From positions 5,332,001 to 5,396,000 of the forward strand of contig CATOCA020000001.1 of NCBI GenBank assembly GCA_951406725.2: a stretch of DNA of 64,000 nucleotides, read 5' to 3'. Both the position numbers and the translations under genes were made by a program. This DNA is from Octopus vulgaris (Eukaryota). Within the stretch, counting starts at the first letter, position 1, and each line of letters opens with the position of its first letter. Of the stretch, positions 1,522 through 30,857 are shown one piece after another. The notes under the pieces are model-generated. The model did no database searches and was not told where the DNA came from. It saw nothing but the letters and a program-made list of their open reading frames with translations.

Positions 1522-1593
1522 AATCCCTTTAAATTTGAAAGGCCCGTGAATGTACCTTCTGTGATGGTTGCAATGTTGTTCGCGTACAGATAT
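1522..1593 (-). CDS. LRR exon 10, 72 nt: (L)YLYANNIATITEGTFTGLSNLKG(L); the gene continues beyond the left edge of the window
   Basis: tattttactctttctttactgatatag|A acceptor, TT|gtaagt donor; no stop codon, LRRCT or TM exon seen in the window. Confidence 0.92.
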
Positions 1594-4351
1594 CTATATC
1601 AGTAAAGAAAGAGTAAAATAGATTATATGGAAAATATTTGTGATACAACATCAAACATTGTGACTTGAGAATGAAAGGAAGAAAAAGAAGAAAGATAACG
1701 AAGAAGAAAAGGAACAAGAAGAAGGAAGAGGAGGAGGCGAAGAAGAATTAGAAGAAGAAAGGAGAAGAGGTAGAAGAAAAAGAAGAGCAAGAAGGAATAG
1801 GAGGAAAAAGGAGGAGGAGGCTGATAAAAGGGAAGAAGATGTAGGAGAAAAAGTAAAAGAAGGAGAAGGAGGGGGAGGAGGAGGAGGAAGTGAATAACAA
1901 GAAGAAGATAAGAATAAGAAAGACGAGGAAGAGGAGGAGGAGAAGTAGATGAAGAAGTAGAAAGAAGAAAGGAGAAGAAGAAGAAGAAGAAGGAGAAGAA
2001 GGAGAAGAAGAAGAAGAAGAAAAAGAAAAAGACGAAAAAGAAAGATGATGAGGAGGGGGAGGGGAAGAAGAAGAATTGCAAGAAGAAGGAAGGGAAGAAC
2101 AAGAAGAAGACGTAGAAGAATTTGAAGCAGGGAAAAGAAGAAGAAGATGAAGAAGAAGAAGGAGGAGGAGGAGGGGGAGAAGGAGAAAGAGAATAACAAA
2201 AACAGAAGTTAAGAAGGAGAAGGAGGAGGAGGAGAAGATGTAGAAGAAGAAGAAGAAGAAGGAAGAGGAGGAAAAAGGAGGAGGAGTAGGAGTATGAAGG
2301 GGGAGAATAAGTAGGAGAAGATGAAAAAGAAGAAGAAGATGAAGGAGGAGGAGGAGGAGGAGGATGAGAATAACAAAAAGAAGAATATAAGAAGAAGAAA
2401 GAGGGGTAGGAGGAGAAGTAGATAAAGAAGTAGAAAGAAGAAGAAGAATATAAGAAGAAAAAAAAAGAAATAGAAGAATGAGAAGAAGAAAAGAAAAAGA
2501 AGGAGGAGGAGGAAAAGAGAAGAAGAAGAATTATAAGAAGAAGCAGAAGAGGAAGAAAAGGAGCAGGAATGGAAGGGAGGAAGAGAATTAGAAGAAGAAA
2601 GAGGAGGAGGAGGGGCGGAGAGGATTGGGTAGAAAAAAAGAAGATGAAATAAAGAAGTAGAAGAAGGAAGAGGAAAAAGGAGGAGGAAGGGTAGATGAAG
2701 AAGTTGAAAGTAGAAGAAGAAGAAGAGGAAGGAGAAGAAGAGGACGAAGAAGAAGAAGAAGAAAAAGAAGAAGAAAAAGAAGAAAAAAGAAAAAGGAGCA
2801 GGAGAGGAGGGGGAGGAAGAGAATTACAAGAAGAAATAGGAGGAGGAGGGGCGGAGTGGAGGGGAAGAGAATTTCAAGAAGAAAATGAAGAATAATAATA
2901 AGAAAAAAATTAGAAGAGGAAGGAGGAGGAGGGACCAGGAGGAGGAGGAGGACCAGGAGGAGGAGGAGGACCAGGAGGAGGAGGAGGACCAGGAGGAGGA
3001 GGAGGACCAGGAGGAGGAGGAGGACCAGGAGGAGGAGGAGGACCAGGAGGAGGAGGAGGACCAGGAGGAGGAGGAGAAGGAGGTGAAATAGAAGAAAAAG
3101 AAAAGAAGTGAAGAAGAAGAAGTAGATGAAGTAGAAGTGGAAGAAAGAAAAGAAGAAGAAGAAGAAGAAGAAGGAGGAGGAGGCAGAAGACGAAATGACA
3201 AAAAGATGATGAAAAAGGCAGAGAAGGAGAAGTAGAATAAGAAAAAGAACAAAAAGAAGAAGAAGAAGGAGAAGAAGAAGAAGAAGAAGAAGAAGAAGAA
3301 GAAGAAGAAGAAGAAGAAGAAGAAGAAGAAGAAGAAGAAGAAGAAGACGAAGAAGAAGACACATTGAAAATCATGGTGTTTAAGATGAAACTGAAAATAT
3401 TTTCGAAATATCAGGAAATAATTCAAGGATAGAATGAAAAATTTTGGGCGAAAAGACATGGCTGAAAAATCAGGGAATATACGGAATCAGAAATCAACAT
3501 ATTCAAATGCACTCATACGCATTCTTATATTCATAGTATCAACGACGGAATGCGGTATGCACACTCACATCACACATATTCCCACTCACCCTTGTGGAAA
3601 TATGGTGAGAGAGATTATTTATTTCATATCGCTTCATTGTCACAAGAATATTAGAAAACACACGCTTACAAGAAATATATCAGCAGTTTAATTGTATCAG
3701 GCCAAATATTCCAGCTTACAAGTACAGTAAGTATTTCAGGTTTACAGATAGAATGTATGTGACTATATTATTCGAATATATATTTTCCGCTTCCACTTCA
3801 GTTGCTCTATTACATAAATAACGGGAAGTGAATGACAAAATTCGAAGTTGAATGATAATATCGAAACACGAAGGAAAATATTGAAATAAGAAATGGAGGA
3901 GGATGCAAAATATAAAATAAAGGAATAATATAGTCACATTTCACACAGAACTACACTTATATATGAACATACACATATACTTCAGCTAAAAATATTTGAT
4001 GCAAACATGTAAACTCACAAAAGTTACCATTTCTAATACAAATTCAAATCAAAATCATTGAAATTTGGGGAACAAAAATGAGTTATTGAGATGCGAATTG
4101 AAACAAAGCAACTACAATAAAGGAACATTATATTTTTCCTATTATTTCACTTTCTCTCTCAAATTCTCTCTCTTTCTTTCACATTGTCTCGCTCTCTCCT
4201 ATTCTCTTTGTATCTTCCTAAATCGTGTTCATTCTACAAATTTGAATTGATTTTGTTTGGTTCAGTCTGAAATATTATACAATTGTGAGCTTATATATCA
4301 GCATCAATTATTACTTTCGGAAAATAGTATCAAGAAACTGAACGAACTTAC

Positions 4352-4423
4352 AATCCCTTTAAATTTGAAAGCCCCGTGAATGCTCCTTCTTTGATGGTTG
4401 CTATGTTGTTCTCGTTCAGAGAT
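4352..4423 (-). CDS. LRR exon 9, 72 nt: (L)SLNENNIATIKEGAFTGLSNLKG(L)
   Basis: Canonical AG/GT boundaries, 72 nt, LRR consensus. Confidence 0.92.
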
Positions 4424-5575
4424 CTATAGCAGTAAAGAAAGAGTAAAATAGATTATATGGAAAATATTTGTGATACAACATCAAACACTGTGACTTGAGA
4501 ATGAAAGGAAGAAAACGAAGAAAGATAACGAAGAAGAAAAGGAAGAAGAAGAAGGAAGAGGAGGAGGCGAAGAAGAATTAGAAGAAAGGAGAAGAGGTTG
4601 AAGAAAAAGAAGAGCAAGAAGGAATAGGAGGAAAAAGGAGGAGGAGGCTAAAAAAACGGAAGAAGATGTAGGAGAAATAGTAAAAGAAGAAGAAGGAGGG
4701 GAGGAGGAGGAGGAAGAGAATAACAAGAAGAAGAGGATAAGAATAAGAAAGACGAGGAAGAGGAGGAGGAGAAGTAGAAAGAAGAAAGGAGAAGAAGAAG
4801 AAGGAGAAGAAGAAGGAGAAGAAGAAGAAGAAAAAGAAGGAGGATAGGGAGGGGGAGGGGAAGAAGAAGAATTGCTAGAAGAAGGAAGGGAAGAACAAGA
4901 AGAAGAAGACGTAGAAGAAATTGAAGCAGGAAAAAGAAGAAGATGAAGAAGAAGAAGGAGGAGGAGGAGCAGGAGGAGAAGGAGAAAGAGAATAACAAAA
5001 ACAGAAGTTAAGAAGGAGAAGGAGGAGGAGGAGAAGATGTAGAAGAAGAAGGAGAAGAAGGAAGTGGAGGAAAAAGGAGGAGGAGGAGTAGGAGTATGAA
5101 GGGGGAGAATAAGTAGGAGAAGATGAAAAAGAAGAAGAAGATGATGGAGGAGGAGGAGGAGGATGAGAATAACAAAAAGAAGAATATAAGAAGAAGAAAG
5201 AGGGGTAGGAGGAGAAGTAGATAAAGAAGAAGAATATAAGAAGAAAAGACAAATAGAAGAATGAGAAGAAGAAAAGAAAAAGGAGGAGGAAAAGAAGAAG
5301 AAGAATTAGAAGAAGAAGCAGAAGAAGAAGAAAAGGAGCAGGAGTGGAAGGGAGGAGGAGAATTACAAGAAGAAAAATGAGGAGGAGGGGCGGAGAGGAT
5401 TGGGTAGAAAAAGAAGATGAAAAAAAGAAGTAGAAGAAGGAAGAGGAAAAAGGAGGAGGAAGATGATGATAGGGAAAAAGTAGGTGCAGAAGAAAAAGAA
5501 TAAGAATAAGAATAAGAAGAAGGAGGAGGAGGAAGGGTTGATGAAGAAGTTGAAAGTAGAAGAAGAAGAAGAAGA

Positions 5576-5610
<35 letters not shown>

Positions 5611-7240
5611 GAGAAGAAGAAGAAGAAGAAGACGAAGAAGAAGAATAAGAAGAAGAAGACGGAGAAGAAAAAGGAGAAAAAAGAAAAAGGAGCAGGAGAG
5701 GAGGGGGAGGAAGAGAATTACAAGAAGAAATAGGAGGAGGAAGGGCGGAGTGGATGGGGAAGAGAATTTAAAAAATATAATGAAGAATAATAATAAGAAA
5801 AAAATTAGAAGAGGAAGGAGGAGGACCAGGAGGAGGAAGAGGACCAGGAGGAGGAGGAGGACCAGGAGGAGGAGGAGGACCAGGAGGAGGAGGAGGACCA
5901 GGAGGAGGAGGAGGACCAGGAGGAGGAGGACCAGGAGGAGGAGGAGGAGGTGAAATAGAAGAAAAAGAAAAGTAGAGAAGAAGAAGAAGAAGAAGAAGTA
6001 GATGGAGTAGAAGTGGAAGAAAGAAAAGAAGAAGAAGAAGAAGAAGAAGAAGAAGAAGAAGAAGAAGAAGAAGAAGGAGGAGGAGGCAGAAGACGAAATG
6101 ACAAAAAGATGATGAAAAAAGCAGAGAAGGAGAAGTAGAATAAGAAAATGAACAAAAAGAAGAAGGAGAAGAAGAAGAAGGAAGAAGAAGAAGAAGAAGA
6201 AGAAGAAGAAGAAGAAGAAGAAGAAGAAGAAGAAGAAGAAGAAGAAGACACATTGAAAATCATGGTGTTTAAGATGAAACTGAAAATATTTTCGAAATAT
6301 CAGGAAATAATTCAAGGATAGAATGAAAAATTTTGGGCGAAAAGACATGGCTGAAAAATCAGGGAATATACGGAATCAGAAATCAACATATTCAAATGCA
6401 CTCATACGCATTCTTATATTCATAGTATCAACGACGGAATGCGGTATGCACACTCACATCACACATATTCCCACTCACCCTTATGGAAATATGGTGAGAG
6501 AGATTATTTATTTCATATCGCTTCATTGTCACAAGAATATTAGAAAACACACGCTTACAAGAAATATATCAGCAGTTTAATTGTATCAGGCCAAATATTC
6601 CAGCTTACAAGTACAGTAAGTATTTCAGGTTTACAGATAGAATGTATGTGACTATATTATTCGAATATATATTTTCCGCTTCCACTTCAGTTGCTCTATT
6701 ACATAAATAACGTGAAGTGAATGACAAAATTCGAAGTTGAATGATAATATCGAAACACGAAGGAGAATATTGAAATAAGAAATGGAGGAGGATGTAAAAT
6801 ATAAAATAAAGGAATAATATAGTCACATTTCACACAGAACTACACTTATATATGAACATACACATATACTTCAGCTAAAAATATTTGATGCAAACATGTA
6901 AACTCACAAACGTTACCATTTCTAATACAAATTCATATCAAAATCATTGAAATTTGGGGAACAAAAATGAGTTATTGAGATGCGAATTGAAACAAAGCAA
7001 CTACAATAAAGGAACATTATATTTTTCCTATTATTTCACTTTCTCTCTCAAATTCTCTCTCTTTCTTTCACATTGTCTCGCTCTCTCATATTCTCTTTGT
7101 ATCTTCCTAAATCGTGTTCATTCTACAAATTTGAATTAATTTTGTTTAGTTCAGTCTGAAATATTATACATTTGTGAGCTTATATATCAGCATCAATTAT
7201 TACTTTCGGAAAATAGTATCAAGAAACTGAACGAACTTAC

Positions 7241-7312
7241 AATGTGTTTAAATTTGAAAGCCCCGTAAATGCTCCTTCTTTGATGGTTGAAATGTTGTTC
7301 TTCCAAAGATTT
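7241..7312 (-). CDS. LRR exon 8, 72 nt: (L)NLWKNNISTIKEGAFTGLSNLNT(L)
   Basis: Canonical AG/GT boundaries, 72 nt, LRR consensus. Confidence 0.92.
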
Positions 7313-10056
7313 CTATAGCAGTAAAGAAAGAGTAAAATAGATTATATGGAAAATATTTGTGATACAACATCAAACACTGTGACTTGAGAATGAAAGGAAG
7401 AAAAAGAAGAAAGATAACGAAGAAGAAAAAGAAGAAGAAGGAAGAGGAGGAGGCGAAGAAGAATTAGAAGAAGAAAGGAGAAGAGGTAGAAAAAAAAGAA
7501 GAGCAAGAAGGAATAGGAGGAAAAAGGAGGAGGAGGCTGATAAAAGGGAAGATGTAGGAGAAAAAGTAAAAGAAGGAGAAGGAGGGGGAGGAGGAGGAGG
7601 AAGAGAATAACAAGAAGAAGAAGATAAGAATAAGAAAGACGAGGAAGAGGAGGAGGAGAAGTAGAAAGAAGAAAGGAGAAGAAGAAGAAGGAGAAGAAGA
7701 AGGAGAAGAAGAAGAAGAAGAAAAAGAAGGAGGATAGGGAGGGGGAGGGGAAGAAGAATTGCTAGAAGAAGGAAGGGAAGAAGAAGAAGAAGACGTAGAA
7801 GTAGTTGAAGCAGGAAAATGAAGAAGAAGATGAAGAAGAAGAAGGAGGAGGAGGAGGAGGAGAAAGAGAATAACAAAAACAGAAGTTAAGAAGGAAGGAG
7901 GAGGAGGCGGAGATGTAGAAGAAGAAGAAGAAGAAGAAGAAGAAGGAAGAGGAGGAAAAAGGAGGAGGAGGAGTATGAAGGGGGAGAATAAGTAGAAGAT
8001 GAAAAAGAAGGAGAAGAAGAAGATGAAGGAGGAGGAGGAGGAGAATAACAAAAAGAAGAATATAAGAAGAAAGAGGGGTAGGAGGAGAAGTAGATAGAAG
8101 TAGAAAGAAGAAGAAGAATATAAGAAGAAAAAAAGAAATAGAAGAATGAGAAGAAGAAAAGAAAAAGAAGGAGGAGGAGGAAAAGAAGAAGAAGAATTAG
8201 AAGAAGAAGCAGAAGAAGAAGAAAAGGAGCAGGCGTGGAAGGGAGGAGGAGAATTAAAGAAGAAAGAGGAGGAGGAGGGGCGGAGAGGATTGGGTAAAAA
8301 AAGAAGATGAAAAAAAGAAGTAGAAGAAGGAAGAGGAAAAAGGAGGAGGAAGAGGATGATAGGGAAAAAGTAGGTGTAGAAGAAAAAGAATAAGAATAAG
8401 AATAAGAAGAAGGAGGTGGAGGAGGAAGGGTTGATGAAGAAGTTGAAAGTAGAAGAAGAAGAAGAAGAAGAAGAAGAAGAAGAAGAAGAAGACGAAGAAG
8501 AAGAATAAGTAGAAGAAGACGGAGAAGAAAAAGAAAAAAGAAAAAGGAGCAGGAGAGGAGGGGGAGGAAGAGAATTACAAGAAGAAATAGGAGGAGGAGG
8601 GGCGGAGTGGATGGGGAAGAGAATTTAAAGAAGAAAATGAAGAATAATAATGAGAAAAAAATTAGAAGAGGAAGGAGGAGGAGGGACCAGGAGGAGGAGG
8701 AGGACCAGGAAGAGGAGTAGAACCAGGGGGAGAAGGAGGACCAGGAGGAGGAGGACCAGGAGGAGGAGGAGGAGGAGGTGAAATAGAAGAAAAAGAAAAG
8801 AAGAGAAGAAGAAGAAGAAGATGAAGTAGATGAAGTAGAAGTGGAAGAAAGAAAAGAAGAAGAAGAAGAAGAAGAAGGAGGAGGAGGCAGAAGACGAAAT
8901 GACAAAAAGATGATGAAAAAGGCAGAGAAGGAGAAGTAGAATAAGAAAAAGAACAAAAAGAAGAAGAAGGAGAAGAAGAAGAAGAAGAAGGAGAAGAAGA
9001 AGAAGAAGAAGAAGAAGAAGAAGAAGAAGAAGGAGAAGAAGAAGAAGAAGAAGAAGAAGAAGAAGACACATTGATAATCATAGTGTTTAAGATGAAACTG
9101 AAAATATTTTCGAAATATCAGGAAATAATTCAAGGATAGAATGAAAAATTTTGGGCGAAAAGACATGGCTGAAAAATCAGGGAATATACGGAATCAGAAA
9201 TCAACATATTCAAATGCACTCATACGCATTCTTATATTCATAGTATCAACGACGGAATGCGGTATGCACACTCACATCACACATATTCCCACTCACCCTT
9301 GTGGACAAATGGTGAGAGAGATTATTTATTTCATATCGCTTCATTGTCACAAGAATATTAGAAAAAACACGCTTACAAGAAATATATCAGCAGTTTAATT
9401 GTATCAGGCCAAATATTCCAGCTTACAAGTACAGTAAGTATTTCAGGTTTACAGATAGAATGTATGTGACTATATTATTCGAATATATATTTTCCGCTTC
9501 CACTTCAGTTGCTCTATTACATAAATAACGTGAAGTGAATGACAAAATTCGAAGTTGAATGATAATATCGAAACACGAAGGAGAATATTGAAATAAGAAA
9601 TGGAGGAGGATGCAAAATATAAAATAAAGGAATAATATAGTCACATTTCACACAGAACTACACTTATATATGAACATACACATATACTTCAGCTAAAAAT
9701 ATTTGATGCAAACATGTAAACTCACAAACGTTACCATTTCTAATACAAATTCATATCAAAATCATTGAAATTTGGGGAACAAAAGAGTTATTGAGATGCG
9801 AATTGAAACAAAGCAACTACAATAAAGGAACATTATATTTTTCCTATTATTTCACTTTCTCTCTCAAATTCTCTCTCTTTCTTTCACATTGTCTCGCTCT
9901 CTCATATTCTCTTTGTATATTCCTAAATCGTGTTCATTCTACAAATTTGAATTGATTTTGTTTGGTTCAGTCTAAAATTTTATACATTTGTGAGCTTATA
10001 TATCAGCATCAATTATTACTTTCGGATAATAGTATCAAGAAACTGAACGAACTTAC

Positions 10057-10128
10057 AATTCTTTTAAATTTGAAAGCCCCGTGAATGCACCTTCTTTGAT
10101 GGTTGCAATGTTGTTCCATTGCAGAAAT
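10057..10128 (-). CDS. LRR exon 7, 72 nt: (L)FLQWNNIATIKEGAFTGLSNLKE(L)
   Basis: Canonical AG/GT boundaries, 72 nt, LRR consensus. Confidence 0.92.
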
Positions 10129-12575
10129 CTATAGCAGTAAAGAAAGAGTAAAATAGATTATATGGAAAATATATGTGTTACGACATCAAACGCTGTGACT
10201 TCAGAATGAAAGGAAGAAAAAGAAGAAAGATAACGAAGAAGAAAAGGAAGAATAAGAAGGAGGAGGAGGAGAAGAAGAAGAAAAAGAAGAAGAAGAATTA
10301 GTAGAAGAAGAAAGGAGAAGAAGGAGAAGAAAAAGAAGGGGAAGAAGTAATAGGAGGAAAAAGGAGGAGGAGGATGGTAAAAGGGAGGAAGTAGTAGCGG
10401 AAAAAGTAAAAGAAGAAGAAGGAGGAGGAGGAGGAGGAGGAGGATGACAAGTAAATGAAGAAGTAGAAAGAAGAAGAAGAAGAAGAAGAAGAAGGAAGAG
10501 GAGGAAAAAGGAGGAGGAGGTGAATGATGGGGAAGAATAAGTAGGAGAAGATGAAAAAGAAGAAGAAGTTGAAGGAGGAGGAGGATGAGAATAACAAAAA
10601 GAAGAATATAAGAAGAAGAAAGAGGAGTAGGAGGAGAAGTAAATGTTGAAGTAGAAAGTAGTAGAAGAAGCAGAAGAAGAAGGAGAAGAAGTATAAGAAG
10701 AAAAATAGAGTAGAAAAATGAGAAGAAGAAAAGAAAAAGGAGAAGGAGGAAAAGAAGAAGAAGAAGAATTAGAAGAAGACGCAGAAGAAGAAGAAAAAGA
10801 TGCGGGAGAGGAGGGGGAGGAGGAGAATTACAAGAAAAAAGGAGTAGGAAGGGCGGAGAGGATTGGGAAGAAAGAAAGAAGAGGAAAAAAGAAGTAGAAG
10901 AGGAAGAGGAAAAAGGAGGAGGAAGCAATGGAAAAGTAGGAGTAGAAGAAAAAGAAGAAGAATAAGGAGGAGGAGGAGGAGGAGGAGTAGTTGAAAAAGT
11001 TGAAAGTAGAAGAGGATGTAGGAGAAGAAGAAGAAGAAATAAGTAGAAGCGATAGAAGATGAAAAAGAATAAGGAGAAGGAGAAGCGATAGAAGAAGAAG
11101 AAGAAGAAGAAGAAGAAGAAGGAGAAGAAGAAGAAGAAGAAGAAGAAGAAGAAGGAGAAGAAGAAGAAGAAGAAGAAGACGAAGAAGAAGAAGAAGAAGA
11201 AGAAGAAGAAGAAGAAAATGAAAAACGAGCAGGAGAGGAGGGGAGGAGGAGAATTACAAGAAGAAAATGAGGAGGAGGGGCGGAGGAGGGGAAGAGAATT
11301 TAAAGAAGAAAATGAAGAATAATAAGAAGAAAGAAATTAGAAGAGGAAGAAGGAGTAGGAGTTGTAGAAGAAGAAGAAAAAGAAAAGAAGAGAAGAAGAA
11401 GAAGAAGAAGAAGAAGGAAAAGAAGAAAAAGAAGAGAAGAAAATGAAGGAGGAGAAGGAGCAGCAGGAGGAGATGAAGAGGAAGAAGAAGAAGTAGAGGA
11501 AGAAGAAGAAGAAGAAGGAGGAGAAGGAGAAGAAGAAGAAGAAGAAGAAGAGGGAGGAGGAGAAGAAGAAGAAGACGAAGAAGATACATTGAAAATTATG
11601 GCGTTCAAGATGAAACTGAAAATGTTCTTAAAATATCAGGAAATAATTCAAGGATAGATCGATAAATTTTGGGCGAGAAGACATGGCTGAAAAATCAGGG
11701 AATATACGGAATCAGAAATCAACATATTCAAATGCACTCATACGCATTCTTATATTCATAGTATCAACGACGGAATGCGGTATGCACACTCACATCACAC
11801 ATATTCCCACTCACCCTTGTGGAAATATGGTGAGAGAGATTATTTATTTCATATCGCTTCATTGTCACAAGAATATTAGAAAACACACGCTTACAAGAAA
11901 TATATCAGCAGTTTAATTGTATCAGGCCAAATATTCCAGCTTACAAGTACAGTAAGTATTTCAGGTTTACAGATAGAATGTATGTGACTATATTATTCGA
12001 ATATATATTTCCGCTTCCACTTCAGTTGCTCTATTACATAAATAACGTGAAGTGAATGACAAAATTCGAAGTTGAATGATAATATCGAAACACGAAGGAG
12101 AATATTGAAATAAGAAATGGAGGAGGATGCAAAATATAAAATAAAGGAATAATATAGTCACATTTCACACAGAACTACACTTATATATGAACATACACAT
12201 ATACTTCAGCTAAAAATATTTGATGCAAACATGTAAACTCACAAACGTTACCATTTCTAATACAAATTCATATCAAAATCATTGAAATTTGTGGAACAAA
12301 ACTGAGTTATTGAGATGCGAATTGAAACAAAGCAACTACAATAAAGGAACGTTATATTTTTCCTATTATTTCATTTTCTCTCTCAAATTCTCTCTCTTTC
12401 TTTCACATTGTCTCGCTCTCTCATATTCTCTTTGTATATTCCTAAATCGTGTTCGATCCTCAAATTTGAATTAATTTTGTTTCGTTCAGTCTGAAATTTT
12501 ATACATTTGTGAGCTTATATATCAGCATCAATTATTACTTTCGGATAATAGTATCAAGAAACTGAACGAACTTAC

Positions 12576-12647
12576 AATCTGTTTAAATTTGAAAGCCCCG
12601 TGAATGCTCCTTCTTTGATTGTTGCAATGTTGTTCTCGTTCAGAGCT
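12576..12647 (-). CDS. LRR exon 6, 72 nt: (L)ALNENNIATIKEGAFTGLSNLNR(L)
   Basis: Canonical AG/GT boundaries, 72 nt, LRR consensus. Confidence 0.92.
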
Positions 12648-13884: not shown

Positions 13885-13916
<32 letters not shown>

Positions 13917-15374
13917 CGAAGAAGAAAAAGAAGAAAAAAGAAAAAGGAGCAGGAGAGGAGGGGGAGGAAGAGAATTACAAGAAGAAATAGGAGGAGGAGG
14001 GGCGGAGTGGAGGGGGAAGAGAATTTAAAGAAGAAAATGAAGAATAATAATAAGAAAAAATATTAGAAGAGGAAGGAGGAGGAGGACCAAGAGGAGGAGG
14101 AGGACCAGGAGGAGGAGGAGGACCAGGAGGAGGAGGAGAAATAGAAGAAAAAGAAAAGAAGAGAAGAAGAAGAAGAAGAAGATGAAGTAGAAGTGGAAGA
14201 AAGAAAAGAAGAAGAAGAAGAAGAAGAAGAAGGAGGAGGAGGCAGAAGACGAAATGACAAAAAGATGATGAAAAAGGCAGAGAAGGAGAAGTAGAATAAG
14301 AAAAAGAACAAAAAGAAGAAGAAGAAGAAGAAGAAGAAGAAGAAGAAGAAGAAGAAGAAGAAGAAGAAGACGAAGAAGAAGACACATTGAAAATCATGGT
14401 GTTTAAGATGAAACTGAAAATATTTTCGAAATATCAGGAAATAATTCAAGGATAGAATGAAAAATTTTGGGCGAAAAGACATGGCTGAAAAATCAGGGAA
14501 TATACGGAATCAGAAATCAACATATTCAAATGCACTCATACGCATTCTTATATTCATAGTATCAACGACGGAATGCGGTATGCACACTCACATCACACAT
14601 ATTCCCACTCACCCTTGTGGAAATATGGTGAGAGAGATTATTTATTTCATATCGCTTCATTGTCACAAGAATATTAGAAAACACACGCTTACAAGAAATA
14701 TATCAGCAGTTTAATTGTATCAGGCCAAATATTCCAGCTTACAAGTACAGTAAGTATTTCAGGTTTACAGATAGAATGTATGTGACTATATTATTCGAAT
14801 ATATATTTTCCGCTTCCACTTCAGTTGCTCTATTACATAAATAACGTGAAGTGAATGACAAAATTCGAAGTTGAATGATAATATCGAAACACGAAGGAGA
14901 ATATTGAAATAAGAAATGGAGGAGGATGTAAAATATAAAATAAAGGAATAATATAGTCACATTTCACACAGAACTACACTTATATATGAACATACACATA
15001 TACTTCAGCTAAAAATATTTGATGCAAACATGTAAACTCACAAACGTTACCATTTCTAATACAAATTCATATCAAAATCATTGAAATTTGGGGAACAAAA
15101 ATGAGTTATTGAGATGCGAATTGAAACAAAGCAACTACAATAAAGGAACATTATATTTTTCCTATTATTTCACTTTCTCTCTCAAATTCTCTCTCTTTCT
15201 TTCACATTGTCTCGCTCTCTCATATTCTCTTTGTATATTCCTAAATCGTGTTCATTCTACAAATTTGAATTGATTTTGTTTGGTTCAGTCTGAAATTTTA
15301 TACATTTGTGAGCTTATATATCAGCATCAATTATTACTTTCGGAAAATAGTATCAAGAAACTGAACGAACTTAC

Positions 15375-15444
15375 AATCTTTAAATTTGAAAGCCCCGTAA
15401 ATGCTCCTTCTTTGATGGTTGCAATGTTGTTCCCTCCAAGATCT
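15375..15444 (-). CDS. LRR exon 5, only 70 nt (2-nt deletion, frameshifting if included): (L)DLGGNNIATIKEGAFTGLSNLK...
   Basis: Splice sites intact, but the + strand reads aatcttt where siblings have 9 nt (e.g. aatcccttt). May be a pseudo-exon or an assembly error. Confidence 0.75.
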
Positions 15445-16632
15445 CTATAGCAGTAAAGAAAGAGTAAAATAGATTATATGGAAAATATTTGTGATACGAC
15501 ATCAAACACTGTGACTTGAGAATGAAAGGAAGAAAAGGCAGAAAGATAACGAAGAAGAAAAGGAAGAAGAAGAAGGAAGAGGAGGAGGCGAAGAAGAATT
15601 AGAAGAAGAAAGGAGAAGAGGTAGAAGAAAAAGAAGAGCAAGAAGGAATAGGAGGAAAAAGGAGGAGGATGCTGATAAAAGGGAAGAAGATGTAGGAGAA
15701 AAAGTAAAAGAAGGAGAAGGAGGGAGAGGAGGAGGAGGAAGAGAATAACAAGAAGAAGAAGATAAGAATAAGAAAGACGAGGAAGAGGAGGAGGAGAAGT
15801 AGATGAAGAAGTAGAAAGAAGAAAGGAGAATAAGAAGAAGAAGGAGAAGAAGAAGGAGAAGAAGAAGAAGAAGAAGAAGACGAAAAAGAAGGAGGATGAG
15901 GAGGGGGAGGAGAAGAAGAAGAATTGCAAGAAGAAGGAAGGGAAGAACAAGAAGAAGAAGACGTAGAAGAAGTTGAAGCAGGAAAAAGAAGAAGATGAAG
16001 AAGAAGAAGAAGGAGGAGGAGGAGGAGGAGAAGGTGAAAGAGAATAACAAAAACAGAAGTTAAGAAGGAGAAGGAGGAGGAGGTGATGTAGAAGAAGAAT
16101 AAAAAGGAAGAGGAGGAAAAAGGAGGAGGAGTAGGTGTAAGAAGGGGGAGAATATGTAGGAGAAGATGAAAAAGAAGAAGAAGATGAAGGAGAAGGAGGA
16201 GGAGGATGAGAATAATTAAAAGAAGAATATAAGAAGAAAGAGGGGTAGGAGGAGAAGTAGATGTAGAAGTAGAAAGAAGAAGAAGAATATAAGAAGAAAA
16301 AAAGAAATAGAAGAATGAGAAGAAGAAAAGAAAAAGAAGGAGGAGGAGGAAAAGAAGAAGAAGAATTAGAAGAAGAAGCAGAAGAAGAAGAAAAGGAGCA
16401 GGAGTGGAAGGGAGGAGGAGAATTACAAGAAGAAAAAGGAGGAGGAGGGGCAGAGAGGATTGGGTAGAAAAAAAGAAGATGAAAAAAAGAAGTAGAAGAG
16501 GGGAGAGGAAAAAGGAGGAGGAAGAGGATGATAGGGAAAAAGTAGGTGTAGAAGAAAAAGAATAAGAATAAGAATAAGAAGAAGGAGGAGGAGGAGGAAG
16601 GGTTGATGAAGAAGTTGAAAGTAGAAGAAGAA

Positions 16633-16664
<32 letters not shown>

Positions 16665-18154
16665 CGAAGAAGAAAAAGAAGAAAAAAGAAAAAGGAGCAG
16701 GAGAGGAGGGGGAGGAAGAGAATTACAAGAAGAAATAGGAGGAGGAGGGGCGGAGTGGAGGGGGAAGAGAATTTAAAGAAGAAAATGAAGAATAATAATA
16801 AGAAAAATATTAGAAGAGGAAGGAGGAGGAGGACCTGGAGTAGGAGGAGGAGGACCAGGAGGAGGAGGAGAAATAGAAGAAAAAGAAAAGAAGAGAAGAA
16901 GAAGAAGAAGATGAAGTAGAATTGGACGAAAGAAAAGAAGAAGAAGAAGAAGAAGAAGAAGAAGAAGAAGGAGGAGGAGGCAGAAGACGAAATGACAAAA
17001 AGATGATGAAAAAGGCAGAGAAGGAGAAGTAGAATAAGATAAAGAACAAAAAGAAGAAGGAGAAGAAGAAGAAGAAGAAGAAGAAGAAGAAGAAGAAGAA
17101 GAAAAAGAAGAAGAAGAAGAAGAAGAAGAAGAAAAAGAAGAAGAAGAAGACGAAGAAGAAGACACATTGAAAATCATGGTGTTTAAGATGAAACTGAAAA
17201 TGTTCTCAAAACATCAGGAAATAATAAAAGGATAGAATGAAAAATTTTGGGCGAGAAGACATGGCTGAAAAATCAGGGAATATACGGAATCAGAAATCAA
17301 CATATTCAAATGCACTCATACGCATTCTTATATTCATAGTATCAACGACGGAATGCGCTATGCACACTCACATCACACATATTCCCACTCACCCTTGTGG
17401 AAATATGGTGAGAGAGATTATTTATTTCATATCGCTTCATTGTCACAAGAATATTAGAAAACACACGCTTACAAGAAATATATCAGCAGTTTAATTGTAT
17501 CAGGCCAAATATTCCAGCTTACAAGTACAGTAAGTATTTCAGGTTTACAGATAGAATGTATGTGACTATATTATTCGAATATATATTTTCCGCTTCCACT
17601 TCAGTTGCTCTATTACATAAATAACGTGAAGTGAATGACAAAATTCGAAGTTGAATGATAATATCGAAACACGAAGGAGAATATTGAAATAAGAAATGGA
17701 GGAGGATGCAAAATATAAAATAAAGGAATAATATAGTCACATTTCACACAGAACTACACTTATATATGAACATACACATATACTTCAGCTAAAAATATTT
17801 GATGCAAACATGTAAACTCACAAACGTTACCATTTCTAATACAAATTCATATCAAAATCATTGAAATTTGGGGAACAAAAATGAGTTATTGAGATGCGAA
17901 TTGAAACAAAGCAACTACAATAAAGGAACATTATATTTTCCCTATTATTTCACTTTCTCCCTCAAATTCTCTCTCTTTCTTTCACATTGTCTCGCTCTCT
18001 CATATTCTCTTTGTATCTTCCTAAATCGTGTTCGATCCTCAAATTTGAATTAATTTTGTTTAGTTCAGTCTGAAATTTTCTACATTTGTGAGCTTATATA
18101 TCAACATCAATTATTACTTTCGGAAAATAGTATCAAGAAACTGAACGAACTTAC

Positions 18155-18226
18155 AATTCTTTTAAATTCGAAAGCCCCGTGAATGCACCTTCTTTGATGG
18201 TTGAAATGTTGTTCTCGTTCAGAGCT
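18155..18226 (-). CDS. LRR exon 4, 72 nt: ALNENNISTIKEGAFTGLSNLKE(L)
   Basis: Canonical AG/GT boundaries, 72 nt, LRR consensus. Confidence 0.92.
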
Positions 18227-20829
18227 CTATAGCAGTAAAGAAAGAGTAAAATAGATTATATGGAAAATATTTGTGATGCGACATCAAACACTGTGACTTC
18301 AGAATGAAAGGAAGAAAAGGCAGAAAGATTACGAAGAAGAAAAGGAAGAAGATGAAGGAGGAGGAGGAGGAGGAGGCGAAGAAGAAGAAAAGGAGGAAGA
18401 AGAATTAGTAGAAGAAGAAAGGAGAAGAAGGAGAAGAAAAAGAAGAGGAAGAAGGTATAGGAGGAAAAAGGAGGAGGAGGATGGTAAAAGGGAAGAAGTA
18501 GAAGCGGAAAAAGTAAAAGAAGAAGGAGGAGGAGGAGGATGACAAGTAGATGAAGAAGTAGAAAGAAGAAGAAGAAGAAGAAGAAGAAAAAGAAAAAGAA
18601 GAAGAAGAAAATGAAGGAGGATGAGGAGGGGGAGAGGAAGAAGTAGAATTGAAGAAGAAGAAAGAAGAGAAGAACAAGAAGAAGACGTAGAAGAAGTAGA
18701 AGAAGGAAAAAGAAAAAGAAGATGAAGAAGGATGAGGAGGAGTAGGAGTAGGAGAAGGAGAAGAAGAAGTAGAAAGAAGGAGAGGAAGAAAAATAAGAAG
18801 AAGAAGAAGAAGAAGAAGGAAGAGGAGGAGGAGGAGAATGATGGGGAAGAATAAGTAGAAGATGAAAAAGAAGAAGATGAAGGAGGAGGAGGATAAGAAT
18901 AACAAAAAGAAGAATATAAGAAGAAGAAAGAGGAGTAGGAGGAGAAGTAAATGTTGAAGTAGAAAGTAGTAGAAGAAGAAGGAGAAGAAGTATAAGAAGA
19001 AAAAAGAGTAGAAAAATGAGAAGAAGAAAAGAAAAAGGAGGAGGAGGAAAAGAAGAAGAAGAAGAAGACGCAGAAGAAGAAGAAAAAGAAGCGGGAGAGG
19101 ACGGGGAGGAGGAGAATTACAAGAAAAAAAGGTGGAGGAGGGGCGGAGAGGATAGGGAAGAAAGAAAGAAGAGGAAAGAAGAAGTAGAAGAAGGAAGAGG
19201 AAAAGGAGGAGGAAGCAATGAAGGGGAAAAGTAGGAGTAGAAGAAAAAGAAGAAGAATAAGAAAAAGAAGGAGGAGGAGTTGAAAAAGTTGAAAGTAGAA
19301 GAGGATGTAGGAGAAGAAGAAGAAGAAATAAGTAGAAGCGAGAGAAGATGAAAAAGAATAAGGAGAACGAGAAGAAAAAGAAGAAGAATAAGAAGACGAA
19401 GAAGAAGAAGAAAAACGAGCAGGAGAGGAGGGGAGGAGGAGAATTACAAGAAGAAAAATGAGGAGGAGGGGCGGAGTGGAGGGGAAGAGAATTTAAAGAA
19501 GAAAATGAAGAATAAGAAGAAGAAAGAAATTAGAAGAAGAAGGAGTAGGAGGAGTAGAAGTAGAAGAAAAAGAAAAGAAGAGAAGAAGAAGAAGAAGGAA
19601 AAGAAGAAAAAGAAGAGAAGAAAAAGAAGGAGGAGAAGGAGCAGCAGGAGGAGAGGAAGAAGAAGAAGAAGAAGAAAGAAGAAGAAGAAGAAGAAGAAGA
19701 AGAAGAAGGACAAAAAGAAGAAGAATTGAAGAAAATGAAGGAGGACGAGGAGGAACAGGAGGAGAGGCAGAGGAAGAAGGAGAAGAAGAAGAAGAAGAAG
19801 AAGAAGAAGAAGAAGAAGAAGAAGAAGAAGAAGAAGATACATTGAAAATCATGTTGTTAAAGACAAAACTGAAAATGTTCTCAGAATATCAGAAAATAAT
19901 TCAAGGATAGAACGATAAATTTTGGGCGAGAAGACATGGCTGAAAAATCAGGGAATATACGGAATCAGAAATCAACATATTCAATTGCACTCATACGCAT
20001 TCTTATATTCATAGTATCAACGACGGAATGCGGTATGCACACTCACATCACACATATTCCCACTCACCCTTGTGGAAATATGGTGAGAGAGATTATTTAT
20101 TTCATATCGCTTCATTGTCACAAGAATATTAGAAAACACACGCTTACAAGAAATATATCAGCAGTTTAATTGTATCAGGCGAAATATTCCAGCTTACAAG
20201 TACAGTAAGTATTTCAGGTTTACAGATAGAATGTATGTGACCATATTATTCGAATATATATTTTCCGCTTCCACTTCAATTGCTCTATTACATAAATAAC
20301 GTGACGTGAATGACAAAATTCGAAGTTGAATGATAATATCGAAACACGAAGGAGAATATTGAAATAAGAAATGGAGGAGGATGTAAAATATAAAATAAAG
20401 GAATGATATAGTCACATTTCACACAGAACTACACTTATATATGAACATACACATATACTTCAGCTAAAAATATTTGATGCAAACATGTAAACTAACAAAC
20501 GTTACCATTTCTAATACAAATTCATATCAAAATCATTGAAATTTGGGGAACAAAACTGAGTTATTGAGATGCGAATTGAAACAAAGCAACTACAATAAAG
20601 GAACATTATATTTTTCCCATTATTTCACTTTCTCTCTCAAATTCTCTCTCTTTCTTTCACATTGTCTCGCTCTCTCATATTCTCTTTGTATATTCCTAAA
20701 TCGTGTTCATTCTACAAATTTGAATTAATTTTGTTTAGTTCAGTCTGAAATATTATACATTTGTGAGCTTATATATCAGCATCAATTATTACTTTCGGAA
20801 AATAGTATCAAGAAACTGAACGAACTTAC

Positions 20830-20901
20830 ATTGCGTTTAAATTTGAAAGCCCCGTGAATGCTCCTTCTTTCATGGTTGAAATGTTGTTCTCGTTCAGAGT
20901 T
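20830..20901 (-). CDS. LRR exon 3, 72 nt: (L)TLNENNISTMKEGAFTGLSNLNA(I)
   Basis: ag|A acceptor, AT|gtaagt donor; the split codon AT+A gives Ile. Confidence 0.92.
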
Positions 20902-23673
20902 CTATAGCAGTAAAGAAAGAGTAAAATAGATTATATGGAAAATATTTGTGATACAACATCAAACACTGTGACTTGAGAATGAAAGGAAGAAAAAGAAGAA
21001 AGATAACGAAGAAGAAAAGGAAGAAGAAGAAGGAAGAGGATGAGGCGAAGAAGAATTAGAAGAAGAAAGGAGAAGAGGTAGAAGAAAAAGAAGAGCTAGA
21101 AGTAATAGGAGGAAAAAGGAGGAGGAGGCTGATAAAAGGGAAGAAGATGTAGGAGAAAAAGTAAAAGAAGGAGAAGGAGGGGGAGGAGGAGGAGGAAGAG
21201 AATAACAAGAAGAAGAAGATAAGAATAAGAAAGACGAGGAAGAGGAGGAGGAGAAGTAAATGAAGAAGTAGAAAGAAGAAAGGAGAAGAAGAAGAAGAAG
21301 GAGAAGAAGAAGGAGAAGAAGAAGACGAAAAAGAAGGAGGATGAGGAGGGGGAGGGGAAGAAGAAGAACTGCAAGAAAAAGGAAGGGAAGAACAAGAAGA
21401 AGACGTAGAAGAAGTTGAAGCAGGAAAAAGAAGAAGATGAAGAAGAAGAAGGAGGAGGAGGAGGAGGAGGAGGAGAAAGAGAATAACAAAAACAGAAGTT
21501 AAGAAGGAGAAGGAGGAGGAGGAGAAGAAGGAGAAAGAGAATAACAAAAACAGAAGTTAAGAAGGAGAAGGAGGAGGAGGCGGAGATGTAGAAGAAGAAG
21601 AAGAAGAAGGAGAAGGAAGAGGAGGATAAATGAGGAGGAGTAGAAGTATGAAGGGGGAGAATAAGTAGGAGAAGATGAAAAAGAAGAAGAAGATGAAGGA
21701 GGAGGAGGAGGAGGAGGATGAGAATAACAAAAAGAAGAATATAAGAAGAAGAAAGAGGGGTAGGAGGAGAAGTAGATAAAGAAGTAGAAAGAAGAAGAAG
21801 AATATGAGAAGAAAAAAAAGAAATAGAAGAATGAGAAGAAGAAAAGAAAAGGAAGGAGGAGGAGGAAAAGAAGAAGAAGAATTAGAAGAAGAAGCAGAAG
21901 AATAAGAAAAGGAGCAGGAGTGGAAGTGAGGAAGAGAATTAGAAGAAGAAAGAGGAGGAGGAGGGGCGGAGAGGATTGGGTAGAAAAAAGATGAAAAAAA
22001 GAAGTAGAAGAAGGAAGAGGAAAAAGGAGGAAGAAGATGATGATAGGGAAAAAGTAGGTGTAGAAGAAAAAGAATAAGAATAAGAATAAGAAGAAGGAGG
22101 AGGAGGAGGGAGGGTAGATGAAGAGGTTGAAAGTAGAAGAAGAAGAAGAAGAGGAAGAGAAGAAGACGAAGAAGAAGAAGACGAAGAAGAAGAATAATAA
22201 GAAGAAGACGGAGAAGAAAAAGAAAAGAAAGGAGCAGGAGAGGAGGGGGAGGAAGAGAATTACAAGAAGAAATAGGGGGAGGAGGGGCAGAGTGGAGGGG
22301 GAAGAGAATTTAAAGAAGAAAATGAAGAATAATAATAAGAAAAATATTAGAAGAGGAAGGAGGAGGAGGAGCAGGAGGAGGAGGAGGACCAGGAGGAGGA
22401 GGAGGAGGAGGAGGAGGAGGAGGAGGTGAAATAGAAGAAAAAGAAAAGAAGAGAAGAAGAAGAAGAAGTAGATGAGTGTAGAAGTGGAAGAAAGAAAAGA
22501 AGAAGAAGAAGAAGAAGAAGAAGAAGAAGAAGGAGGAGGAGGAGGCAGAAGACGAAATGACAAAAAGATGATGAAAAAGGCAGAGAAGGAGAAGTAGAAT
22601 AAAAGAAGAACAAAAAGAAGAAGAAGGAGAAGACGAAGAAGAAGAAGAAGAAGAAGAAGAAGAAGAAGACGAAGGAGATGACACATTGAAAATCATAGTT
22701 TTTAAGATGAAACTGAAAATATTTTCGAAACATCAGGAAATAATTCAAGGATAGAATGAAAAATTTTGGGCGAGAAGACATGGCTGAAAAATCAGGGAAT
22801 ATACGGAATCAGAAATCAACATATTCAAATGCACTCATACGCATTCTTATATTCATAGTATCAACGACGGAATTCGGTATGCACACTCACATCACACATA
22901 TTCCCACTCACCCTTGTGGAAATATGGTGAGAGAGTTTATTTATTTCATATCGCTTCATTGTCACAAGAATATTAGAAAACACACGCTTACAAGAAATAT
23001 GTCAGCATTTTAATTGTATCAGACCAAATATTCCAGCTTACAAGTACAGTAAGTATTTCAGGTTTACAGATAGAATGTATGTGACTATATTATTCGAATA
23101 TATATTTTCCGCTTCCACTTCAGTTGCTCTATTACATAAATAACGTGAAGTGAATAACAAAATTCGAAGTTGAATGATAATATCGAAACACGAAGGAGAA
23201 TATTGAAATAAGAAATGGAGGAGGATGTAAAATATAAAATAAAGGAATAATATAGTCACATTTCACACAGAACTACACTTATATATGAACATACACATAT
23301 ACTTCAGCAAAAAATATTTGATGCAAACATGTAAACTAACAAACGTTACCATTTCTAATACAAATTCATATCAAAATCATTGAAATTTGGGGAACAAAAA
23401 TGAGTTATTGAGATGCGAATTGAAACAAAGCAACTACAATAAAGGAACATTATATTTTTCTTATTATTTCATTTTCTCTCTCAAATTCTCTCTCTTTCTT
23501 TCACATTGTCTCGCTCTCTCATATTCTCTTTGTATCTTCCTAAATCGTGTTCATTCTACAAATTTGAATTAATTTTGTTTAGTTCACTCTGAAATATTAT
23601 ACATTTGTGAGCTTATATATCAGCATCAATTATTACTTTCGGAAAATAGTATCAAGAAACTGAACGAACTTAC

Positions 23674-23745
23674 AATTCTTTTAAATTGGAAAGCCCCGTA
23701 AATGTACCTTCTTTGATGGTTGAAATGTTGTTGTTGTCAAGACGT
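23674..23745 (-). CDS. LRR exon 2, 72 nt: (L)RLDNNNISTIKEGTFTGLSNLKE(L)
   Basis: Same splice signals and phase as exon 1; typical 24-aa extracellular LRR. Confidence 0.92.
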
Positions 23746-26423
23746 CTATAGCAGTAAAGAAAGAGTAAAATCGATTATATGGAAAATATTTGTGATACAA
23801 CATCAAACACTGTGACTTGAGAATGAAAGGAAGAAAAAGAAGAAAGATAACGAAGAAGAAAAGGAAGAAGAAGAAGGAAGAGGAGGAGGCGAAGAAGAAT
23901 TAGAAGAAAGGAGAAGAGGTAGAAGAAAAAGAAGAGCAAGAAGGAATAGGAGGAAAAAGGAGGAGGAGGCTGATAAAAGGGAAGAAGATGTAGGAGAAAA
24001 AGTAAAAGAAGAAGAAGGAGGGGAGGAGGAGGAGGAAGAGAATAACAAGAAGAAGAAGATAAGAATAAGAAAGACGAGGAAGAGGAGGAGGAGAAGTAGA
24101 AAGAAGAAAGGAGAAGAAGAAGAAGGAGAAGAAGAAGGAGAAGAAGAAGAAGAAGAAAAAGAAGGAGGATAGGGAGGGGGAGGGGAAGAAGAAGAATTGC
24201 AAGAAGAAGGAAGGGAAGAACAAGAAGAAGACGTAGAAGAAGTTGAAGCAGGAAAATGAAGAAGAAGATGAAGAAGAAGAAGAAGGAGGAGGAGGAGGAG
24301 GAGGAGAAAGAGTATAACAAAAACAGAAGTTAAGAAGGAGAAGGAGGAGGAGGCGGAGATGTAGAAGAAGAAGAAGAAGAAGGAGAAGGAAGAGGAGGAT
24401 AAAGGAGGAGGAGTAGAAGTATGAAGGGGGAGAATAAGTAGGAGAAGATGAAAAAGAAGAAGAAGATGAAGGAGGAGGAGGAGGAGGAGGATGAGAATAA
24501 CAAAAAGAAGAATATAAGAAGAAGAAAGAGGGGTAGGAGGAGAAGTAGATAAAGAAGTAGAAAGAAGAAGAAGAATATAAGAAGAAAAAAAAGAAATAGA
24601 AGAATGAGAAGAAGAAAAGAAAAGGAAGGAGGAGGAGGAAAAGAAGAAGAAGAATTAGAAGAAGAAGCGGAAGAAGAAGAAAAGGAGCAGGAATGGAAGG
24701 GAGGAGGAGAATTAGAAGAAGAAAGAGGAGGAGGAGGGGCGGAGAGGATTGGGTAGAAAAAAAGAAGATGAAAATAAGAAGTAGAAGAAGGAAGAGGAAA
24801 AAGGAGGAGGAAGATGATGATAGGGAAAAAGTAGGTGTAGAAGAAAAAGAATAAGAATAAGAATAAGAAGAAGGAGGTGGAGGAGGAAGGGTTGATGAAG
24901 AAGTTGAAAGTAGAAGAAGAAGAAGAAGAGGAAGAAGAAGAAGACGAAGAAGAAAAAGAAGAAGAAGAAGAAGACGGAGAATAAAAAAGAAGAAAAAAGA
25001 AAAAGGAGCAGGAGAGGAGGGGGAGGAAGAGAATTACAAGAAGAAATAGTAGGAGGAGGGGCGGAGTGGAGGGGGAAGAGAATTTAAAGAAGAAAATGAA
25101 GAATAATAAGAAGAAAACTATTAGAAGAGGAAGGAGGAGGAGGACCAGGAGGAGGAGGAGGAGAAATAGAAGAAAAAGAAAAGAGAAGAAGAAGAAGAAG
25201 AAGAAGATGAAGTAGAAGTGGAAGAAAGAAAAGAAGAAGAAGAAGAAGAAGAAGGAGGAGGAGGAGGCAGAAGACGAAATGACAAAAAGATGATGAAAAA
25301 GGCAGAGAAGGAGAAGTAGAATAAGAAAAAGAACAAAAAGAAGAAGAAGGAGAAGAAGAAGGAGAAGAAGAAGAAGAAGAAGAAGAAGAAGAAGAAGAAG
25401 AAGAAGAAGAAGAAGAAGAAGAAGAAGAAGACACATTGAAAATCATGGTGTTTAAGATGAAACTGAAAATATTTTCGAAATATCAGGAAATAATTCAAGG
25501 ATAGAATGAAAAATTTTGGGCGAAAAAACATGGCAGAAAAATCAGGGAATATACGGAATCAGAAATCAACATATTCAATTGCACTCATACGCATTCTTAT
25601 ATTCATAGTATCAACGACGGAATGCGGTATGCACACTCACATCACACATATTCCCACTCACCCTTGGGGAAATATGGTGAGAGAGTTTATTTATTTCATA
25701 TCGCTTCATTGTCACAAGAATATTAGAAAACACACGCTTACAAGAAATATATCAGCAGTTTAATTGTATCAGGCCAAATATTCCAGCTTACAAGTACAGT
25801 AAGTATTTCAGGTTTACAGAAATAATGTATGTGACTATATTATTCGAATATATATTTACCGCTTCCACTTCAGTTGCTCTATTACATAAATAACGTGACG
25901 TGAATGACAAAATTCGAAGTTGAATGATAATATCGAAACACGAAGGAGAATATTGAAATAAGAAATGGAGGAGGATGTAAAATATAAAATAAAGAAATAA
26001 TATAGTCACATTTCACACAGAACTACACTTATATATGAACATACACATATACTTCAGCTAAAAATATTTGATGCAAACATGTAAACTAACAAACGTTACC
26101 ATTTCTAATACAAATTTATATCAAAATCATTGAAATTTGGGGAACAAAAATGAGTTATTGAGATGCGAATTGAAACAAAGCAACTACAATAAAGGAACAT
26201 TATATTTTCCCCATTATTTCATTTTCTCTCTCAAATTCTCTCTCTTTCTTTCACATTGTCTCGCTCTCTCATATTCTTTTTGTATCTTCCTAAATCGTGT
26301 TCATTCTACAAATTCGAATTGATTTTGTTTGGCGCAGTCTGAAATTTTATACATTTGTGAGCTTATATATCAGCATCAATTATTACTTTCGGATAATAGT
26401 ATCAAGAAACTGAACGAACTTAC

Positions 26424-26495
26424 AATACGTTTAAATTTGAAAGCCCCGTGAATGCTCCTTCTTTTATGGTTGCAATGCTGTTCCCTCCAAGATAT
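26424..26495 (-). CDS. LRR exon 1 in transcript order, 72 nt: (L)YLGGNSIATIKEGAFTGLSNLNV(L)
   Basis: Pyrimidine tract + ctatag|A acceptor, TT|gtaagt donor, open frame matching LxLxxNxIxxIxxxxFxxLxxLxxL. Confidence 0.92.
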
Positions 26496-30666: not shown

Positions 30667-30857
30667 AAATATTCAACATTCGTCGGAATTGGTTGTGGAA
30701 TTGATAGTAAATTGCGACCTCTACAATATATTCTCGTTGTAAGTGAATTGCAATTACATATGTTGCATATATCTGAATCAGCTTGAGTCTCCAAAAACAA
30801 TATCGTACACAGTATCAACACAAGAGACCGTCTATATGATACTACGTGGTGAAACAT
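30667..30857 (-). CDS. First coding exon of an LRR receptor-like gene: signal peptide + LRRNT cap (MFHHVVSYRRSLVLILCTILFLETQADSDICNICNCNSLTTRIYCRGRNLLSIPQPIPTNVEYL)
   Basis: Hydrophobic N-terminal stretch, then a CxxCxC...C.GRNLxSIPxxIP LRRNT motif. Ends TAT TT|GTAAGT (phase-2 donor, 30666-30661). Upstream acceptor ttttcttcttttacag at 30879/30878, so the exon begins at 30877 with 20 nt of UTR. Confidence 0.9.

Follow-up and report, generated by a model that had tools for sequence, protein, structure and literature searches.

The 64,000-nucleotide (nt) stretch of Octopus vulgaris DNA analysed here, referred to as the window (G000:C31:5332001-5396000, part of a 2.8-Gb genome), carries an array of ten minus-strand exons that each encode one leucine-rich repeat (LRR). 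We consider it probable that this array forms the variable LRR arm, with one repeat per exon, of a protein that is predicted to be secreted and derives from an adhesion G-protein-coupled receptor (GPCR), and that the array has been shaped by selection at four codons together with gene conversion. The product is likely a fast-changing recognition protein, probably secreted. The selection signal is strong; the recognition function is what we infer.

The ten exons (positions 1522-26495 of the window) have AG/GT ends and phase 2-2, and follow one another at a unit spacing of 2.5-2.9 kb. Nine of these cassettes are 72 nt long and one (15375-15444) is 70 nt. A 72-nt cassette consists of one base that closes the prior codon, 23 codons, and two bases that open the next. 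Because the intron splits the motif, a six-frame scan with the full LxxLxLxxN pattern overlooked the cassettes.

Exons vary more than the adjoining introns

Nucleotide diversity among the ten window units is 0.152 in the exon, 0.019 in the 870-nt block on the donor side of the intron and 0.039 in the 75 nt on the acceptor side. The window exons differ about eightfold more than the adjoining intron blocks, and the greater variability of the exons, first proposed in a sequence-only reading, is thus confirmed after alignment of the ten units. Segregating sites make up 24/72 positions in the exon, 58/867 in the donor-side block and 11/75 on the acceptor side (exon 24/72 versus intron 69/942, Fisher odds ratio 6.3, p = 1.7e-9). 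Within the exon, diversity is 0.49 at codons 1, 3, 4 and 23 versus 0.085 elsewhere. The residues listed earlier for these positions are all correct, with eight residues at codon 1, six each at codons 3, 4 and 23, and Asn or Lys at codon 22, and the positions named as invariant (L2, N5, I7, T9, E12, G13 and FTGLSNL) hold. Codons 6, 8, 10, 11 and 14 are also variable, with two residues each.

Two parts of the sequence-only reading needed qualification. Its description of the intron blocks as differing by scattered single-nucleotide polymorphisms only is accurate for the conserved part of each intron, which is only about 0.95 kb long, but fails for the remaining 1.5-1.9 kb, a 90% purine GAA/GGA spacer in which substitution distance is 0.066 (0.022-0.15) and each pair of units has about 33 gap openings; this mean is still under that of the exon. 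The exon excess, described as non-synonymous, is concentrated at codons 1, 3, 4 and 23 as stated, but four-fold degenerate sites in the window exons are diverse as well (0.27). Diversity at four-fold sites is 0.22-0.27 in the cassettes, and in three single-copy exons it is 0.021, 0.031 and 0, matching their flanking introns. Silent cassette sites are about tenfold more diverse than the introns or than the silent sites of single-copy exons.

Between paralogues, the cassette introns are about as diverse as the ordinary single-copy introns of the family. Purifying selection on the intron block was considered as the cause of its uniformity and rejected, since single-copy introns are equally similar between paralogues.

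Selection at codons 1, 3, 4 and 23

For codon analyses we extracted 82 cassettes of the window type (three more were missed by the acceptor filter) and used 74 in-frame 72-nt exons, dropping seven that were frameshifted and one of 69 nt. A full-length homologous intron block is present for 55 of the 74. Site models were fitted with our own GY94/F3x4 code on a scaled nucleotide tree, with naive empirical Bayes posteriors. For the nine intact window exons, twice the log-likelihood difference (2dlnL) is 19.5 for M1a/M2a, 22.9 for M7/M8 and 19.0 for M8a/M8, with omega (dN/dS) of 5.4-5.6 and posteriors of at least 0.91 at codons 1, 3, 4 and 23; those of all other codons are at most 0.2. Analysis of 70 distinct paralogous exons returned the identical four codons (2dlnL 99.0 and 79.8, omega 4.0-4.6). 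The model with omega capped at 1, M8a, is rejected for the window exons (p = 1e-5) and for the 70 exons (p = 4e-19). The diversifying selection suggested by the sequence-only reading is borne out in all three comparisons, and the class with omega above 1 consists of these four codons only.

As recombination can inflate site-model tests, we ran neutral simulations with free or block-wise recombination, and none of the 86 (0/86) attained 19.5. Direct counts in the nine intact window exons give a proportion of non-synonymous differences (pN) of 0.58 at the four codons; for the 17 codons outside the x positions, pN is 0.036 and its synonymous counterpart (pS) 0.21. A second, independent cassette type (15 exons) is variable at the same four codons, with third-position diversity of 0-0.13. 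Variation in the single-copy cap exons lies mainly around strand positions, and one cysteine-rich exon is identical in all four copies.

In the LRR pattern LxxLxLxxNxL, the side chains at x2, x5, x7 and x8 point outwards. An AlphaFold model of the O. sinensis homologue P0007 has a predicted local distance difference test score (pLDDT) mostly above 85 in the LRR-region block and is uninformative past residue 392 (pLDDT <50). It predicts a strand every 24 residues, spanning codon 23, the intron-split Leu and codon 1, with codons 3 and 4 directly after. Foldseek matches of the model are typical LRR solenoids (chondroadherin, target TM-score 0.87; LRIG1; LINGO-1). The earlier placement of the variable codons at strand positions of the concave face fits this predicted strand, and the residues at codons 1, 3, 4 and 23 may, by analogy with other LRR proteins, contact ligand.

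Probable exchange of short patches between units

Distances between exons do not correlate with those between introns (Mantel r = -0.02, p = 0.59), and units whose introns differ at two of 870 nt (99.8% alike) disagree at each of the four codons. Introns are closer within a gene than between genes (0.024 versus 0.029, p = 0.0005); exons do not cluster by gene (0.144 within versus 0.146 between, p = 0.34). Linkage (r2) drops from 0.14 for sites less than 10 nt apart to 0.035 for those 30-70 nt apart, with none left past about 30 nt, and the states of codons 3 and 23 are independent of each other (p = 0.54). The 74 exons carry 66 block combinations, and identical blocks of codons 2-4 recur in up to five genes with different partners at codon 1 and codons 22-23.

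The tenfold greater diversity of silent cassette sites indicates that the cassette alleles are older than the introns surrounding them. This excess, together with the uncoupled histories of exon and intron, makes gene conversion part of the mechanism, and a background of concerted evolution, also anticipated from the letters of the window, is supported. The mechanism is probably ordinary germline selection and conversion. Its simplest reading would be frequent short-tract gene conversion with unequal exchange among units: ectopic conversion and unequal crossing-over between the 2.8-kb units would homogenise neutral DNA, here the introns, and recombine short patches of exon, while selection would favour new residues at the four codons on the beta-strand side and retain divergent alleles of the binding face. 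The concave face would bind a variable ligand, and old exon alleles may long have been kept by frequency-dependent or balancing selection. The purine-rich spacers possibly promote exchange, which is a guess. Conversion may mainly erase intron differences, or it may import exon patches from older paralogues.

Gene architecture and family

P0010 is the annotated model of the window locus. To the left of the window the gene continues with a last LRR exon, an LRRCT exon, two cysteine-rich exons and more ectodomain exons including HRM, and closes with a short exon whose stop codon is at about C31:5295440. Some of these downstream domains may be LU/three-finger-like and SEA-like. The gene's final two exons occur twice, about 17 kb from each other (C31:5295489 and 5278407), which gives alternative 3' ends; each pair lies near a reverse-transcriptase fragment like that of a long interspersed nuclear element (LINE).

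The cysteine-rich exon has 31 protein matches, all from Octopus species at 72-100% identity; many are labelled adhesion GPCR G6-like, and several carry GPS and a seven-transmembrane region (7TM). In the Atlas search the cysteine-rich domain gave no usable match. Relatives of the window gene carry LRR, HRM, GAIN, GPS and 7tm_2, with GAIN/GPS present in P0012, P0027 and P0030. The window gene shares the homologous ectodomain of this group (HRM, a weak match in P0010 with E 0.003, and the terminal exon) and has neither GAIN/GPS nor a secretin-type 7TM: tblastn with full-length relatives found no GAIN or GPS exon in C31:5272001-5406000, the 45 matches from 61 scored candidates include no 7TM match (transmembrane segment 3, TM3) on C31 between 2.89 and 9.33 Mb, and Pfam found no 7tm_2 in P0010. 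Since it has no GPS and no 7TM, the window copy is predicted to be a secreted protein. The gene is a member of a young family of octopus genes that arose from an LRR adhesion GPCR.

Similar arrays lie in at least 14 places in the DNA examined, on C31, C30, C5 and C2. Among the loci examined, genes hold from 2 to more than 12 cassettes, all phase 2-2, and the constant regions of paralogous genes are 96-97.5% identical. Family members at C31:3.01-3.04 Mb, C31:4.21-4.23 Mb, C5:141.89 Mb and C2:215.29 Mb interleave the two cassette types, each with its own intron; the window contains no second-type cassette exon. The first four codons of the cassette at 23674-23745 match second-type codon usage (Arg-Leu and Asp-Asn starts), which may point to patches exchanged between the cassette types or to convergence. 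At C31:4975001-5065000 two family genes stand head to tail, and the first seems to stop after its first SEA-like exons, before HRM. No family exon was found in four stretches near HRM matches on C1, at C31:4.81-4.84 Mb and at C31:9.97-9.99 Mb.

Weighing the interpretation

Several observations weigh against selection and conversion acting on a functional, expressed receptor arm. The outward exposure of the variable side chains was taken from the LxxLxLxxNxL pattern, not from coordinates, and the fold is that of the O. sinensis homologue. The codon models ignore multi-nucleotide mutations, and 7 of the 86 null simulations passed the nominal 5% threshold. The sequencing runs used for expression (X1, X2 and others) are only guessed to be RNA, none being on record as such, and their RNA-like junctions are not assignable to the window locus with certainty. 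The window gene itself has two frameshifts, in the 70-nt cassette 5 and in a last LRR exon of 71 nt (C31:5327448-5327518; 72 nt in paralogues with boundaries read), so the window copy may be a pseudogene, a private allele; 7 of the 82 extracted cassettes are frameshifted. If the indels are consensus errors at mixed-haplotype columns, the assembly may have produced chimeric combinations in some exons, and the recombination signal would then be inflated.

The 70-nt cassette and 71-nt last exon make a net change of -3 nt, so the annotated P0010 reads through in the wrong frame, and its sequence should not be trusted within the shifted-frame part. All 13 indels in the seven frameshifted cassettes are in or beside polymorphic codons (2-4, 8, 11, 19 and 21-23), six of the seven units have no short indel in 400 nt of adjoining intron, and in X16 all three contigs over the last-LRR-exon site carry an extra base. 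The confinement of the indels to polymorphic codons and the extra base in X16 make consensus error at mixed-haplotype columns likelier than inactivation as the source of the window frameshifts; cassette 5 is probably such an error, otherwise an inactivated cassette.

In some RNA-like contigs two different cassettes are joined, 3' end to 5' end, at the splice sites predicted (four joints in X1, one in X2); others from family members link a cassette with the last LRR exon, and that exon with LRRCT. An X4 junction contains an LRRCT start found only at the window locus among six copies examined. The RNA-like contigs use the proximal LRRCT acceptor at C31:5323772 (158-nt exon); annotations labelled O. 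vulgaris place it 51 nt upstream, adding 17 probably spurious residues.

As to the ligand, we lean towards microbes or parasites at body surfaces over self, neural or other ligands. The same evolution could have produced neuronal or self-identity codes, protocadherin- or Dscam-like, or chemosensors of suckers and skin, none of them antimicrobial; we regard this as possible, though the less likely reading. Host-pathogen conflict typically brings rapid positive selection at specific sites and secreted products, and the window family combines such selection with probably secreted products. The structural neighbours do include neural adhesion LRR proteins, but LRR fold similarity of this kind is generic. 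In O. sinensis, 13 annotated isoforms of a single gene use different sets of cassettes, which would suit an identity code and is suggestive of alternative splicing of the cassettes; short paralogue reads can cross-map. Expression reported in the available part of PMC6408891 points both ways, with axial nerve cord, suckers and skin enriched for octopus-specific adhesion GPCRs, and with gill and skin expression in C. minor. A bolder proposal, which we hold to be unlikely, is an antibody-like octopus repertoire of secreted and membrane LRR receptors from one adhesion GPCR, varied by patchwork conversion and cassette splicing, perhaps cell by cell, as a convergent analogue of lamprey VLRs and insect Dscam.

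Very improbable, in our estimate, is a targeted mutator (a deaminase or error-prone repair) that diversifies the exon ends in germline or soma, as in lamprey VLRs. It would suit the clustered and often multi-nucleotide changes, the tenfold excess at silent cassette sites and the somewhat raised intron diversity (0.06) at 50-100 nt from the exon. The finer pattern of change argues otherwise. In 71 of 74 exons the third base of codon 1 is T, and the first two positions of this codon yield 12 residues; the four-fold site of codon 2, which lies between hypervariable codons, has essentially two states (38 CTG, 35 CTT); and four of the seven four-fold sites have a diversity of at most 0.04 in 55 units. 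The hypervariable codons show 10 transitions versus 18 transversions (transition/transversion ratio kappa 0.6-0.95) and lack a deaminase bias, identical blocks of codons 2-4 are found in three to five different genes, and the germline gene is already complete, with exons that can be spliced. Targeted diversification, which had been offered beside selection, finds no support in third codon positions that are fixed and a spectrum free of transition bias.

An assembly artefact, with near-identical introns collapsed or polished to consensus and exons that are haplotype chimeras, would account for 13 of 13 frameshifting indels at polymorphic codons next to intron that is clean in six of seven units. 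We give it very little credence: independent runs contain long and very deep intron-block contigs (in X1, 376 nt with a depth of 737; in X18, 123 nt with a depth of 1763) and several alleles at the exon sites, O. sinensis proteins vary at the same positions and 12 of their 17 codon 1-4 motifs do not occur in the O. vulgaris set, and intron diversity equals that of single-copy introns between paralogues. Just as implausible is relaxed constraint only, with exposed positions drifting neutrally beside introns that are young through recent duplication or under purifying selection: the family is young, exposed LRR positions tolerate change and frameshifted copies exist, but the idea is largely refuted by the rejection of M8a and the recombination null, neutral drift cannot make exon sites about 25 times as diverse as neighbouring introns of equal age, the other exposed positions, on the convex side, are nearly constant, and intron diversity is not below that of ordinary family introns.

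Layout of the array and surrounding sequence

At 30667..30877, on the minus strand, lies an exon for a predicted signal peptide (Met at 30857) and an LRRNT cap, which ends in phase 2 and matches the N-terminus of P0010. The ten LRR cassettes, all on the minus strand, follow at 26424..26495 (cassette 1; codons 1-4 YLGG, codons 22-23 NV), 23674..23745 (cassette 2; RLDN, KE), 20830..20901 (cassette 3; TLNE, NA), 18155..18226 (cassette 4; ALNE, KE), 15375..15444 (cassette 5; DLGG, two bases short around codons 21-23), 12576..12647 (cassette 6; ALNE, NR), 10057..10128 (cassette 7; FLQW, KE), 7241..7312 (cassette 8; NLWK, NT), 4352..4423 (cassette 9; SLNE, KG) and 1522..1593 (cassette 10; YLYA, KG). 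An AT-rich donor-side block of 870 nt recurs after each cassette (for example at 25554..26423, minus strand). The purine-rich spacer, exemplified by 23821..25553 and assigned to neither strand, holds the length variation between units.

Further upstream of the gene, the window contains a degraded transposase remnant (33380-34420), putatively mariner-like by the motifs in its translation, and a 4.3-kb direct duplication at 94% identity (43707-48060 and 59706-64000). Additional partial copies of this duplication lie at 50.8-59.7 kb; the repeated DNA holds LINE-like fragments, and similar DNA is also found upstream of paralogous genes.

Comparison with known systems

One recent review (PMC13428168), in the part available, lists no diversified immune receptor family for cephalopods. 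With four defined codons per repeat, many cassette alleles, and secreted and membrane forms, the family makes pathogen or self recognition in the octopus directly testable. It is also an unusually clean case, in that exon variation is roughly tenfold older than that of the adjoining introns. The silent-site excess, the uncorrelated exon and intron distances and the decay of linkage within about 30 nt are newly found here.

Domain content and source labels make it most likely that the window family corresponds to the adhesion GPCR expansion specific to octopuses that Ritschard et al. 2019 (PMC6408891) described. The available part of that study reports LRRs in 5 of 22 group-3 adhesion GPCR sequences, tandem duplication and branch-level positive selection, and found no positively selected sites, with which the four selected codons contrast. 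The group-3 expansion resembles the relatives of the window family in carrying LRR, HRM, GAIN, GPS and 7tm_2 and in its G6-like labels. It differs in that the window copy is without GPS and 7TM and in that the same part of PMC6408891 describes no cassette exons. Such exons are undescribed in the open-access literature searched; the supplements of PMC6408891 may list LRR-bearing genes.

The LRR arrays of Tetrahymena (2019, PMC6564038) share tandem single-LRR exons, phase-2 introns, clonal expansion and ectopic recombination with the octopus array. They differ in being from a ciliate and in having 30-residue repeats, and the term "positive selection" does not occur in the available part of PMC6564038.

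The VLRs of lampreys and hagfish, as described in the parts of PMC3900441 and PMC12264053 at hand, resemble the octopus family in their 24-residue typical LRRs between LRRNT and LRRCT caps, variability of the concave beta-sheet, membrane and secreted forms, and conversion-like use of modules. Unlike the octopus gene, a VLR gene is incomplete in the germline, and cytidine deaminases assemble it somatically from donor cassettes. The octopus family has a predicted typical LRR solenoid with concave-strand variability, and in place of an incomplete germline gene with non-spliced donor cassettes it has AG/GT ends on every cassette, family members that splice exon to exon, and a germline spectrum with no transition bias.

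The closest parallel is provided by the ROCO LRR-GTPases of brown algae (Zambounis et al. 2012, PMC3341825; Teng et al. 2024, PMC11378527). According to the available parts of these papers, they too encode each LRR in one 72-nt exon, shuffle exons between recent paralogues and contain inactivated exons, and they show positive selection at a few concave-face sites, as the octopus family does, and alternative splicing, which the octopus family may share. In the octopus family we likewise find symmetric-phase single-repeat exons of varying number and site-specific positive selection. The ROCO proteins are intracellular GTPases of an unrelated lineage, whereas the octopus proteins are extracellular and GPCR-derived, and the shared design is therefore convergent.

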